From a virus (taxonomy: Duplodnaviria > Heunggongvirae > Uroviricota > Caudoviricetes), in IMG/VR virus record IMGVR_UViG_2711768034_000008: 2,083 nucleotides of DNA, one strand, 5' to 3'. The notes beneath the pieces were generated by a model, which searched no databases, was not told where the DNA came from, and saw only the letters and a list, made by a program, of their open reading frames with translations. Position numbers and translations under genes: made by a program. This document shows positions 1 through 2,083 of the stretch, one piece after another; position 1 is the first letter of the stretch; each line of letters starts with the position of its first letter.

Positions 1-68
1 AAGATATGATGTGATGGCATTTTATAAAGTTATTTTTTGAAGTGTAAGATTATACGATATTTTTAGCT

Positions 69-100
69 ACGCCAGAATAATTGCTGGCGTTTTTCTTTTT
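69..100 (+). terminator. Candidate rho-independent terminator (tR'-like) upstream of the lysis genes
   Basis: Seen in sequence: 7-bp stem ACGCCAG (69-75) / CTGGCGT (84-90) with an 8-nt loop, followed directly by TTTTCTTTTT (91-100). Position about 90 nt upstream of the holin start fits the late-operon terminator that Q antitermination reads through in lambdoid phages (inference). Stem is short and not very GC-rich, so strength is uncertain. Confidence 0.4.
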
Positions 101-190
101 GAATAGATGTTCGGGCCTTACGCTAATGTAACTTCTTTCCTTCTTCGAACCAAACCGTGTACACCATCCGTTATCTGCGGAGGTGAGGCT

Positions 191-406
191 ATGAAATCCA
201 TGGATAAGTTAACAACGGGCATCGCCTACAGCACCTCTGCAGGCAGTGCTGGCTACTGGTTTTTACAGTTGCTCGATAAAGTCACGCCCTCACAGTGGGC
301 GGCAATAGGTGTATTGGGTAGTCTGGTATTTGGCATGCTGACGTATCTGACAAACCTTTATTTCAAGATTAAAGAAGACAGGCGTAAGGTTGCGAGAAGA
401 GAGTAA
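191..406 (+). CDS. essQ: Phage class II holin (pinholin), S21 / EssD / EssQ family, 71 aa, with dual-start antiholin/holin motif
   Basis: Translation [71 protein letters not shown]. Same length and architecture as phage 21 S21 and the E. coli prophage holins EssD/EssQ, recalled from memory: weakly hydrophobic Gly/Ala/Ser-rich TMD1, hydrophobic TMD2, basic C-terminal tail. Strong SD GGAGGT at 179-184, 6 nt before ATG 191; second in-frame ATG at 200. Stop TAA 404-406. The symbol essQ is a family-level guess based on pairing with an RrrQ-like endolysin; essD-like is also possible. Confidence 0.9.
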
Positions 407-410
407 TCCA

Positions 411-962
411 ATGACTCAAGACTATGAACTGGTTGTGAAAGGAGTTCGCAATTTTGAGAATAAAGTGGCGGTAACTGTAGCCTTACGGGACAAAAAACAC
501 TTTGACGGTGAAATTTTTGACCTGGACATCTCGCTGGACCGTGTTGAAGGTGCCGCGCTGGAGTTTTATGAGGCAGCAGCCAGAAGGAGCATCAGACAGG
601 TCTTCCTGGATGTTGCTGCCGGGTTATGTGAAGGGGATGAGCAGTCGCCGGAAAAGCGCCCCATAATTTTAGAGGCGCAGAATGTGTGGATAACCTACAA
701 AGGAAAGCTACCGGGAAGAATTACTGGTTCTCTGAAGACGCCACCGACGGCATTGCGGTCAGAAAAAGATGATATTGAATCGCCCATTGAAAAACTGGAG
801 GGCAGCGTCGCTGATCTGAATAAAAAATTGTCGGTGCTGATTCCTTCTGAAGATGAAAAAAAACGCCGCGATGAGCAGTTTGCGGCGTTTTACGATTATT
901 GCATTGAAGTTACTCGCAGGAATTTTGTGAAGATTTTTGAGGAGGGTAAATCTCTTCAGTAA
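411..962 (+). CDS. Hypothetical protein, 183 aa, hydrophilic and acidic, no predicted TM segment; translationally coupled to the holin
   Basis: Long open frame (MTQDYELVVKGVRNFENKVAVTVALRDKKHFDGEIFDLDISLDRVEG...FVKIFEEGKSLQ). ATG 411 lies 4 nt after the holin stop, preceded by an AGAGAG-like weak SD (398-404). Codon usage is broadly E. coli-like. I do not recognise the family. The track's TTG at 390 is a less likely start. Stop TAA 960-962. Confidence 0.6.
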   Translation: MTQDYELVVKGVRNFENKVAVTVALRDKKHFDGEIFDLDISLDRVEGAALEFYEAAARRSIRQVFLDVAAGLCEGDEQSPEKRPIILEAQNVWITYKGKLPGRITGSLKTPPTALRSEKDDIESPIEKLEGSVADLNKKLSVLIPSEDEKKRRDEQFAAFYDYCIEVTRRNFVKIFEEGKSLQ

Positions 963-1170
963 GCTTATTGGCGGACGCTGCAATTAATTCAGGAAGGTCC
1001 GCAAGGTCATCTGTCAGTGGATATGATGAAAAATCGGCGGCAGTTCTGTTAAGAAGCGCTTTAACTAATTCCTTTTCCTTCTCCGGCAACAAGTTGATTA
1101 GAGCTACGACTGCTTGCCTGAGTGCGATTAAATCAGCAAAAGTTTGTTTAGGTAGATTTGTGTAATCCAT
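910..1170 (-). CDS. Hypothetical small protein, 86 aa, acidic and predicted helical, encoded opposite to the lysis operon
   Basis: Minus-strand ORF MDYTNLPKQTFADLIALRQAVVALINLLPEKEKELVKALLNRTAADFSSYPLTDDLADLPELIAASANKLTEEIYPPQKSSQNSCE. ATG at 1168-1170 (plus-strand CAT) preceded by GAGG with a 5-nt spacer (minus-strand AGAGGCGACT-ATG). The region is visibly more AT-rich (roughly 37% GC in a 60-nt sample versus about 53% in the endolysin) and uses rarer codons (CTA, AGG, TTA), as horizontally acquired genes often do. The last 17 codons overlap the 3' end of the 411-962 gene. Family not recognised. Confidence 0.5.
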   Translation of the reverse strand: MDYTNLPKQTFADLIALRQAVVALINLLPEKEKELVKALLNRTAADFSSYPLTDDLADLPELIAASANKLTEEIYPPQKSSQNSCE

Positions 1171-1283
1171 AGTCGCCTCTGTGTTTATCAGATTGACATC
1201 CTCCTCCCGCCAGTGCCCATCACTGGTGAGGTAAGATTTAACATATCCGGGGATTTGAAGCCGATAAATCCTGATAAATATCC

Positions 1284-1820
1284 ATGAACGTAAAAATCAG
1301 ATACAGCCTGTCGGCCGCTGTTCTGGCACTGATTGCCGCCAGTGCTCCTGCCCCTGACATTCTCGATCAGTTTCTGGATGAAAAAGAGGGGAATCACACC
1401 ACTGCATACCGCGATGGCTCCGGCATATGGACCATCTGTCGGGGAGCAACGATGGTGGACGGTAAACCTGTTATTCCGGGAATGAAACTGTCGAAGGAAA
1501 AATGCGCCCAGGTTAACGCCATTGAGCGGGATAAGGCGCTGGCATGGGTGGAGCGCAATATAAAAGTTCCACTGACCGAGCCACAGAAAGCCGGTATCGC
1601 GTCATTCTGTCCCTATAACATTGGCCCTGGTAAGTGTTTTCCGTCGACGTTTTATAAGCGGCTTAATGCCGGTGATCGTAAAGGCGCATGCGAGGCGATT
1701 CGCTGGTGGATAAAGGACGGTGGACGTGATTGCCGCATTCGTTCAAATAATTGTTACGGTCAGGTTATTCGGCGTGACCAGGAGAGTGATCCTACCCACG
1801 TAATATGGACACAGGCCTAA
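1284..1820 (+). CDS. rrrQ: SAR endolysin (phage lysozyme, GH24 T4-lysozyme-like, R21 / RrrD / RrrQ class); 3' end fused to IS3 terminal sequence
   Basis: Translation [54 protein letters not shown]... N-terminus has basic residues followed by an Ala/Ser-rich weakly hydrophobic stretch (signal-anchor-release type). Catalytic triad Glu35 / Asp44 / Thr50 sits at the same positions as in phage 21 R21 (LEG...YKD...WTVC versus EKEG...YRD...WTIC here). The ORF is open to TAA 1818-1820, but from 1787 onward the codons are IS3 terminal-repeat sequence, so the last 10 residues ([10 protein letters not shown]) are not native. Symbol rrrQ is a family-level assignment from memory, not a database hit. No obvious SD upstream of ATG 1284. 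Confidence 0.88.
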
Positions 1821-1825
1821 GCGAG
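1787..1825 (-). repeat. IS3 terminal inverted repeat (orfB-proximal end)
   Basis: Sequence TGATCCTACCCACGTAATATGGACACAGGCCTAAG... starting at 1787 matches my recollection of the IS3 terminus (TGATC... ends). The transposase stop codon (plus-strand CTA at 1817-1819) lies inside it, as in IS3. Exact IR length (about 39 bp) is from memory. Confidence 0.6.
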
Positions 1826-2083
1826 GTTCTTGTTTTCAAATTGTTCCGGACTGAGGCCGCCACACCAACTGTGCCGCCGCCACCGATTGTAATCACATTC
1901 GATATAATTAAACACCGTTGCCCGCATTATTTCCCGGCTGATAAAGTGTTCTCCATGGATACATTCCACTTTCAGCGAATGAAAGAAGCTTTCCACGCAG
2001 GCATTATCGTAGCAGCAACCTTTTGCGCTCATACTTCCACGCAGATTATGCCGCTTCAGTTGCGCCTGATAATCTGCTGAACA
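1817..2083 (-). CDS. insF: IS3 family transposase OrfB (DDE integrase core), C-terminal portion; 5' part lies outside the window
   Basis: Minus-strand translation ...[88 protein letters not shown] with stop TAG at 1817-1819. Contains the conserved YDNAxxESFF motif carrying the catalytic Glu of the DDE triad and the IS3-type C-terminal tail. The frame is open to the window edge, so the Met at 2030-2032 in the ORF track is internal, not the start. Confidence 0.92.

Follow-up and report, generated by a model that had tools for sequence, protein, structure and literature searches.

The lysozyme gene described here raises the question of whether its product carries at the N-terminus a domain of the signal-anchor-release (SAR) type that stays on the enzyme, or an ordinary Sec signal peptide that is cut off, and whether this particular copy of the gene can still take part in lysis. 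The DNA analysed, referred to below as the window, is a stretch of 2083 bp. Its ORF list and Pfam scans indicated the late-operon lysis cassette of a lambdoid, Qin-type cryptic prophage of E. coli, interrupted at its 3′ end by an insertion element, with the following features (arrows in motifs mark potential cleavage positions).

191 to 406, plus strand: a 71-aa class II holin of essQ type that belongs to the S21 family and is presumed to be a pinholin; it carries the dual-start motif M1-K-S-M4 (PF04971, 'Bacteriophage P21 holin S', 3.3e-34).
411 to 1283, no strand assigned: insert between holin and lysozyme, holding the YdfR-like ORF, the convergent ORF and the ydfR 3′ remnant listed next.
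411 to 962, plus strand: DUF1327/YdfR-like ORF, 183 aa (PF07041, 2.6e-42; full-length match to phrog_2091, 183/183).
910 to 1170, minus strand: convergent ORF of 86 aa (full-length match to phrog_2572, 86/86).
About 1232 to 1287: diverged remnant of the ydfR 3′ end, ending in an ATGA stop/start overlap (DNA alignment to K-12 ydfR-rrrQ).
1284 to 1820, plus strand: rrrQ-type phage lysozyme ORF, 178 aa, the same protein as WP_053274312.1 (PF00959, 2.7e-24; phrog_7 endolysin, 3.3e-59; RefSeq rrrQ annotation; exact look-up).
1284 to 1304, plus strand: n-region MNVKIRY with the basic residues K4 and R6, presumed cytoplasmic (sequence).
1305 to 1355, plus strand: weakly hydrophobic segment, residues 8-24, a putative SAR or uncleaved signal-anchor with Pro-guarded ASA↓P and APA↓P motifs.
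1356 to 1388, plus strand: conserved helix running into the catalytic Glu35 at 1386-1388 (invariant residues; AF2 helix 23-35).
1413 to 1433, plus strand: Asp44 (1413-1415) and Thr50 (1431-1433), the rest of the E-X8-D-X5-T triad (counting, alignment to R21 in 3hde, conservation).
1787 to 2083, minus strand: end of IS3, with its terminal inverted repeat TGATCCTACCCAC... and the transposase C-terminus (rve_2 and rve_3 domains; annotation 'IS3-like element IS3 family transposase').

In a megablast search of 5,426 complete E. coli genomes, many strains, E. coli HS among them, matched window positions 1-1788 with 100% identity; in HS the locus is annotated as essQ, a pseudogene ('YdfR family protein'), a hypothetical protein, rrrQ (lysozyme, WP_001101173.1) and rzpQ. 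The ORF at 1284-1820, which begins at the first in-frame start codon, is an allele of rrrQ, the endolysin gene of the Qin-type lambdoid cryptic prophage of E. coli. Over codons 1-168 it does not differ from the intact allele WP_001101173.1, while codons 169-178 and the stop come from IS3; the window protein and intact HS RrrQ share 96.6% identity, with every difference falling in the last ten residues. Identity was 90-93% to K-12 RrrQ (b1554), 88-90% over 177 aa to the 933W endolysin R and, in tblastn searches of phage genomes, 90-92% to proteins of many Stx1/Stx2 phages, H-19B and Min27. Among T4-type (GH24) lysozymes, the protein is a member of the 933W-R/RrrQ subfamily. Its PF00959 match scored 86.3 bits (cut-off 22.3) and joined protein residues 33-167 to profile positions 2-125 of 125, and phmmer against PDB sequences retrieved R21 (3hde, E = 1.2e-15) and RrrD (4zpu, about 1e-15) with the triad aligned. 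AF2 models recovered the lysozyme fold, with pTM values of 0.81 and 0.74 for the intact relative and the window protein, respectively, and Foldseek placed the AF2 model with the phage lysozymes 7m5i, 3hde, 4zpu and 6et6 (probability 1.0, TM 0.6-0.66). The sole NCBIfam match, to a gene-transfer-agent endolysin model, was sub-threshold (69.5 bits against a cut-off of 315) and uninformative.

The locus is best read as a familiar type of gene in familiar surroundings, a SAR endolysin of the rrrQ / 933W-R type behind an S21-type holin in a Qin-like prophage partly degraded by IS3, and its significance beyond correct annotation is small, since this is a catalogued rrrQ allele. The SAR-endolysin/pinholin reading of the RrrQ/933W-R family is itself already published. 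The R phams of Stx phages have been classed as predicted SAR endolysins, with a pin-holin as partner in 99% of these phages (Pinto et al. 2021, PMC8136144), and the Young laboratory lists 'pZE12-933W-R: phage 933W SAR endolysin' among its plasmids (Chamblee et al. 2022, PMC9239132).

The catalytic residues named by an earlier note on this DNA are present, direct counting giving E35 as GAG at 1386-1388, D44 as GAT at 1413-1415 and T50 as ACC at 1431-1433; all three lie outside the interval 1284-1370 to which that note was attached. Agreement of the numbering with R21 was also borne out, as phmmer aligned residues 31-150 to residues 31-146 of full-length R21 (3hde) with E35, D44 and T50 coinciding. 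In a set of 94 non-redundant, near-full-length relatives, E35 and D44 were invariant and T50 was at least 90% conserved. What did not survive was the use of an 'R21-identical' triad spacing as specific evidence, since the spacing is generic, identity to R21/RrrD is only 36% and the shared numbering is coincidental. In a MAFFT alignment with K-12 RrrD, which is essentially R21, the triad coincides, but it does so through a 6-residue gap in RrrQ and a cancelling 6-residue gap in RrrD, both upstream of Glu35, and among the relatives 23-27 residues precede the ILDQFL motif, which puts Glu at 33-37. The identical absolute numbering is thus a matter of chance, and a special relation to R21 was rejected because identity is low, the spacing is generic, and the numbering varies and agrees only through compensating gaps. 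An E-8aa-D/C-5aa-T spacing is common to the P1, 21, phiKMV, Era103 and T4 lysozymes (PMC4640515; PMC9239132), and the triad marks a T4-type 'true lysozyme' without marking an R21-like enzyme.

R21 of phage 21 and RrrD of DLP12 (3hde, 3hdf, 4zpu) serve as the structural paradigm of SAR endolysins. They share with the window protein the GH24 fold, the E35-D44-T50 triad, the order of basic residues, weakly hydrophobic segment and Pro, the pairing with an S21 pinholin, and a C-x-W-G motif, the last of which is replaced in the window copy. In R21, however, 24 uncharged residues make up the SAR segment, which contains many Gly (IGGGAI) and leads directly into Glu35 without a separate helix, whereas RrrQ has an 18-residue segment followed by a conserved helix of its own. 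In this helix and at its end F30, L31, E33, K34, E35 and G36 are invariant in the 94 relatives; it is the counterpart of the T4 lysozyme N-terminal helix and is distinct from the hydrophobic segment. The released SAR of R21 is said, in work of Sun et al. from 2009, to refold and reposition Glu35. Activation of this type would call for a SAR that is contiguous with the catalytic Glu and supplies the N-terminal helix of the active fold, and in RrrQ the separate helix 23-35 intervenes. Because of the 18-residue segment and the separate conserved helix, activation of RrrQ need not equal that of R21.

The N-terminus itself is as the earlier note had described it, weakly hydrophobic and rich in Ala and Ser from residue 8 to residue 24 (nt 1305-1355), behind the basic K4 and R6. 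Its uncharged stretch is 18 aa long, has a Kyte-Doolittle mean of 1.43 and is 56% Ala/Gly/Ser/Thr, much as in 933W R, so that the sequence pattern of a SAR domain, basic residues followed by a charge-free, weakly hydrophobic segment rich in A/G/S/T, is present. A hydrophobic N-terminus occurs in 94/94 relatives, with L9, S10, L16 and A23 invariant and G20 and A21 conserved in at least 96%, and the feature is therefore not a product of chance. Mean column entropy across the relatives was 0.67 bits in the hydrophobic core, 2.12 bits in the n-region and 0.45 bits in the mature domain; position 6 is R or K in 91/94, the remaining n-region being highly variable. The Pro that had been noted right after Ala-Ser-Ala is likewise there, with A19-S20-A21 followed by P22, and P24 comes right after an overlapping A21-P22-A23. 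Of the 94 relatives, 91 have Pro at position 22 or 24, immediately behind an AXA-type motif (AGASAP, AGAPAS/T or AGAPAP), and only three have none (AGASASA twice, GDASAEK once).

In AF2 models made with the family alignment, a helix at 11-18 is followed by a turn and a helix at 23-35; residues 11-30 have a pLDDT of 95-96 in the intact relative P0004 and of 89-92 in the window protein. Foldseek alignments covered 169-178 columns with full-length R21 as against 140 with SAR-less R21. This model confidence and the alignment length suggest that the N-terminal helix may be packed onto the catalytic body. A lipoprotein signal was considered and rejected, as residues 1-51 contain no Cys and no lipobox.

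The closest phage system is that of 933W. Its endolysin R (AAD25450.1) has the same 25-residue N-terminal layout of basic n-region, core and A-S-A-P, the same E35/D44/T50, eight Cys and an S21-family holin ahead of it. The two differ at the end of the core, which reads AAGASAPE in 933W R and AASAPAPD in the window; in the window protein Pro thereby blocks two AXA sites and the open AGA↓S is missing, and the protein carries Ser in place of the near-invariant Gly20 and in place of Gly8. In 933W the S and R genes are adjacent with a 4-nt spacer, whereas 877 bp separate holin and lysozyme in the window. The earlier note placed a pinholin upstream of the lysozyme, and an S21-type holin was confirmed there by the PF04971 match at 191-406 (3.3e-34); this holin is 92% identical to K-12 EssD (DLP12), 89% to EssQ and 77% to 933W S, and its homology to S21 suggests that it would act as a pinholin. 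RrrQ-type lysozymes preceded by a class II holin, S21-type or related, were found in 933W, K-12 Qin, Klebsiella and other Enterobacteriaceae prophages, and the pairing is a family trait. The idea that the Pro-less relatives go with a different class of holin was dropped, since one of them (P0100) still lies behind a PF04971 holin of the S21 type; for another (P0097), on a short contig, the upstream fragment does not look S21-like.

From these features we infer that RrrQ is exported, escapes cleavage, is tethered to the membrane and is later released. The basic n-region would, together with a short segment rich in Ala, Ser and Leu (residues 7-24), route the protein through Sec, and the Pro right behind the AXA motifs would hinder signal peptidase I, so that the segment is retained and the enzyme held at the periplasmic face of the inner membrane. 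Collapse of the proton-motive force by the S21-type pinholin encoded upstream would then let the weakly hydrophobic segment leave the bilayer, and the released full-length enzyme, its N-terminal helix probably packed on the catalytic body, would degrade murein by means of Glu35, Asp44 and Thr50. The near-universal Pro beside the AXA motif would give a simple account of how a segment the size of a signal peptide escapes cleavage.

Sequence alone does not decide between a SAR domain and a cleavable signal peptide. If the N-terminus were an ordinary Sec signal peptide, signal peptidase I would cut between A19 and S20 or between S20 and A21, a soluble lysozyme starting at about residue 20-21 would accumulate in the periplasm, and its activity would be kept in check by some means other than tethering to the membrane; such restraint is exemplified by Lys44, a secreted endolysin of the Oenococcus phage fOg44 that depends on collapse of the proton-motive force. 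The layout of the segment is tripartite as in such peptides (MNVKIRY, an h-region, then SAPAP), and its 18 aa, Kyte-Doolittle mean of 1.43 and 19-residue Hessa sum of +5.6 kcal/mol fall inside the range of nine classical cleaved E. coli signal peptides (OmpA, PhoA, MalE, LamB, Bla, DsbA, OmpF, PhoE and PelB). Compared with the SAR domains of R21 and P1 Lyz, at 24 residues each, the segment is also clearly shorter and less hydrophobic. Hydrophobicity and length were consequently dropped as a discriminator, because the values overlap completely with those of classical cleaved signal peptides. The catalytic domain, moreover, has an N-terminal helix of its own, so that the hydrophobic segment is not obviously needed for catalysis in the way that it is in R21. 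A scan by the -3/-1 rule showed that four candidate sites lie towards the end of the hydrophobic core and that the Pro argument covers two of them; the claim that Pro blocks signal peptidase I holds at ASA↓P and APA↓P and does not extend to IAA↓S and AAS↓A, weaker sites that are left formally permissive by the absence of Pro at +1. Two further formal matches, LIA↓A and the mid-core sites, are implausible by position. The same scan left AGA↓S unblocked in 933W R and K-12 RrrQ, and textbook sites occur in those relatives that carry AGASAS↓A or ASA↓E. There is also a precedent in T4 RI, whose long-accepted SAR domain is really a cleavable signal peptide and whose PhoA fusion looked SAR-like through a Pro that had accidentally come to stand at +1 (Mehner-Breitfeld et al. 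2021, PMC8385771).

That precedent cuts both ways, because it warns against SAR calls made from sequence and yet demonstrates that a signal peptide with Pro at +1 is exported and left unprocessed. Pro at +1 is a documented block to the E. coli signal peptidase I, LepB (Barkocy-Gallagher & Bassford 1992; Karamyshev 1998, both as cited in passages of PMC8385771), and the constructs dealt with in those passages, MBP +1 Pro mutants and the RI-NTD-PhoA fusion, resemble RrrQ in having a short h-region and an AXA followed by Pro, and were exported but unprocessed. They are engineered artefacts, whereas in RrrQ the arrangement is natural and is kept in 91/94 relatives. Pro after the best AXA site in so many sequences, often at two overlapping sites, would be hard to explain if the segment were cleaved; the h-region, with its four invariant positions, is conserved beyond what a disposable targeting peptide needs, and the model confidence of 89-96 over residues 11-30 also speaks against its loss. 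A freely secreted active muramidase would, in addition, uncouple lysis from the timing set by the holin. Expression of 933W R alone turned a small fraction of cells into spheres, and significantly more when the Mu releasin gp25 was co-expressed (PMC9239132), which is the behaviour of a membrane-tethered enzyme. Membrane release and activation driven by depolarisation or a pinholin is described as the 'definitive test' of a SAR endolysin (PMC9239132). Weighing the sequence evidence, the precedent of PMC8385771 and the 933W R data together, we consider it likely that the RrrQ N-terminus is the SAR domain of an endolysin that works with a pinholin, and quite unlikely that it is a cleaved signal peptide.

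A narrower version of the SAR reading, which we put forward tentatively and would not expect to hold on present grounds, is that the RrrQ/933W-R subfamily has a distinct SAR domain derived from a signal peptide, with an h-region of ordinary signal-peptide length that is protected from cleavage solely by a conserved 'proline guard' at the AXA motif and is followed by an autonomous catalytic domain. Such a conserved proline guard on a segment of signal-peptide size would be only a mildly new angle. If it were true, tethering and release would differ from those of R21, with its repositioned Glu, and of P1 Lyz, with its disulfide isomerisation; a single Pro-to-Ala change would turn a holin-controlled endolysin into a constitutively secreted one; and the rare natural Pro-less variants from prophages of Klebsiella michiganensis and Pluralibacter would represent cleaved enzymes or else prove the Pro dispensable.

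Whatever the N-terminus of the family does, the copy in the window has been altered at its other end. Identity to intact rrrQ stops at nt 1788, and the IS3 terminal inverted repeat (TGATCCTACCCACGTAATATGG...), identical to IS3 ends elsewhere, runs from 1787; aligning the sequence with the uninterrupted HS locus and an IS3 end from strain A10 placed the entry of IS3 at 1787-1789, with a 2-bp ambiguity at the junction (1787-1788). The C-terminal end of the integrase-core transposase was found on the minus strand from about 1817 on (ORF list and Pfam). The reading frame of rrrQ enters the element, and residues 169-177, ALTCWGIEQ, are replaced by ten IS3-encoded residues, whereas the C-terminus is intact in 933W R. 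The complete polypeptide with the conserved C-terminal tail of the subfamily is therefore lacking here. Within that tail all of the 93-94 relatives compared have L170, C172 and W173, and 91/93 have G174; the C-x-W-G motif is kept even in RrrD/R21 at 36% identity. With C172 lost, seven Cys are left in a periplasmic protein whose eight are all conserved in the relatives, and AF2 pLDDT over residues 161-178 is 46-49 in the window protein as against 75-80 in the intact one.

The surroundings of the gene have decayed as well. The Qin prophage of K-12 (essQ-ydfR-rrrQ-rzpQ/rzoQ, with RrrQ as b1554 or YdfQ) has the same order of holin, DUF1327 gene and lysozyme, but there ydfR is 312 bp long and its stop overlaps the rrrQ start (ATGA), whereas in the window ydfR has been rearranged into the 183-aa ORF and the convergent 86-aa ORF. 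Only a diverged remnant of the ydfR-rrrQ coupling junction is left, and translational coupling is lost. No Shine-Dalgarno sequence was found within 25 nt of the rrrQ ATG, and the frame upstream of the start is open for 43 codons without a start codon. K-12 Qin also keeps the rrrQ C-terminus and the spanin genes; in intact loci rzpQ/rzoQ lie directly after rrrQ, and in the window IS3 intervenes and displaces them.

These changes suggest a further explanation, that the N-terminal features are intact while the locus is a dead remnant whose IS3-fused protein is unmade or misfolded and has no muralytic or lysis function in the strain, in which case the SAR question would be moot for the window. The near-invariant tail replaced by IS3, the drop in tail pLDDT, the seven remaining Cys, the upstream frame with neither Shine-Dalgarno sequence nor start codon, and the displaced rzpQ/rzoQ all favour it, as does the finding of the exact protein, WP_053274312.1, on a single contig among 15 billion sequences. 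The only study that literature searches on RrrQ/YdfQ biochemistry brought up, a K-12 rrrQ deletion, showed no phenotype in peptidoglycan or vesicle assays (PMC12287860), which points the same way. On the other side, the Pfam catalytic domain (residues 33-167) is wholly retained, AF2 confidence is not a measurement of stability, and a dead remnant is compatible with the SAR reading of the gene's ancestry, not an alternative to it. On balance we lean towards such a remnant for this strain. Because IS3 has replaced the C-terminal L-x-C-W-G tail and displaced the spanins, and a ribosome-binding site and coupling are absent, the lysis system of this copy is, judged by its sequence, most likely non-functional. 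The functional pairing of the enzyme with the upstream pinholin despite the insert, as proposed in the earlier note, accordingly stands for the family and is doubtful at this locus, given the IS3-replaced 3′ end, the displaced spanin genes, the missing Shine-Dalgarno sequence and the lost ydfR coupling.

The window illustrates how a prophage lysis cassette decays, through truncation by IS3, loss of coupling and separation from the spanin genes; such decay is relevant when inferring whether endolysins of cryptic prophages still contribute to lysis or vesicle formation. The exact rrrQ::IS3 junction was absent from the matches listed in the 5,426 complete E. coli genomes and from GTDB representative genomes, and the nearest case among the matches listed was in strain KKo009, where IS3 had inserted independently at a distance of 5 bp.

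The N-terminus of the window rrrQ allele is less Gly-rich than typical SAR domains because it carries Ser at codon 8 (window 1305), where most E. coli alleles encode Gly8, and at codon 20 (window 1341), where Gly20 is found in 90 of the 94 near-full-length relatives. An identical N-terminus is common among E. coli (HS, PCN061 and others) and, thus, Ser8/Ser20 is not a private mutation of this allele. In rare RrrQ-family members, no Pro is present close to the AXA motif; their sequences are LAGASASAILDQ (first type) and LGDASAEKILDQ, and the genes for these proteins are located at the following positions in the compared loci:

L010-L012 (Klebsiella michiganensis and related contigs), 3001-3540
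L009, 93-626

In the first type, an S21-like holin gene is still located upstream, and its last 20 nt are shared with the beginning of the lysozyme gene. The Pro-less members represent natural test cases for whether or not the Pro is required against cleavage.

Across the family, eight Cys of the RrrQ periplasmic domain are fully or almost fully conserved, and the hydrophobic segment contains none. Disulfides might have a role in the folding or regulation of the enzyme, as in P1 Lyz or Lyz103. The positions are as follows:

residues 52, 74, 109, 118, 136, 150 and 157, Cys of the rrrQ protein
residue 172, additional Cys in the intact allele

Cys172 is lost through the IS3 fusion, leaving an odd number of Cys in the window protein. 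The remaining features of the window are:

69-100 (+), GC-rich hairpin (ACGCCAG...CTGGCGT) with a T-run on its 3′ side
191-202, S21-type dual-start motif Met1-Lys-Ser-Met4 of the holin, with a good SD (GGAGGTGAGG) upstream
411-962 (+), 183-aa ORF with an end-to-end phrog_2091 match (1-183 of 183, 8e-112)
910-1170 (-), convergent 86-aa ORF (WP_001557934.1) with an end-to-end phrog_2572 match
about 1232-1287, diverged ydfR 3′-end remnant directly upstream of rrrQ
1787-2083, IS3 end, cutting rrrQ short beyond codon 168

An independent IS3 insertion was present in the same rrrQ end of strain KKo009 (locus L008, about 2560-2610), only 5 bp further in. Several other strains (H61-H64) carry IS3 within about 70-470 bp downstream, and in strain STEC383 the holin itself carries IS3. 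Together with the IS3 end in the window, these data suggest that the Qin lysis region is a local IS3 hot spot.

The ydfR remnant retains the ATGA stop/start overlap with rrrQ; the would-be ydfR-rrrQ coupling frame has only 43 open codons and no start, and the rrrQ start lacks a Shine-Dalgarno sequence. Further upstream, the 183-aa and 86-aa ORFs overlap by about 50 nt and, instead of being debris, may form a mosaic module. Of the 183-aa ORF, only 411-746 is annotated in RefSeq, where it is a pseudogene of the YdfR family ‘missing C-terminus’. The terminator-like hairpin and T-run lie about 90 nt 5′ of the holin start and could be a late-operon terminator read through by Q antitermination; terminator-like sites as a whole were not enriched relative to shuffles (3 found, 2.1 expected). 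The dual start of the holin gene fits the production of both an antiholin and a holin from a single gene.
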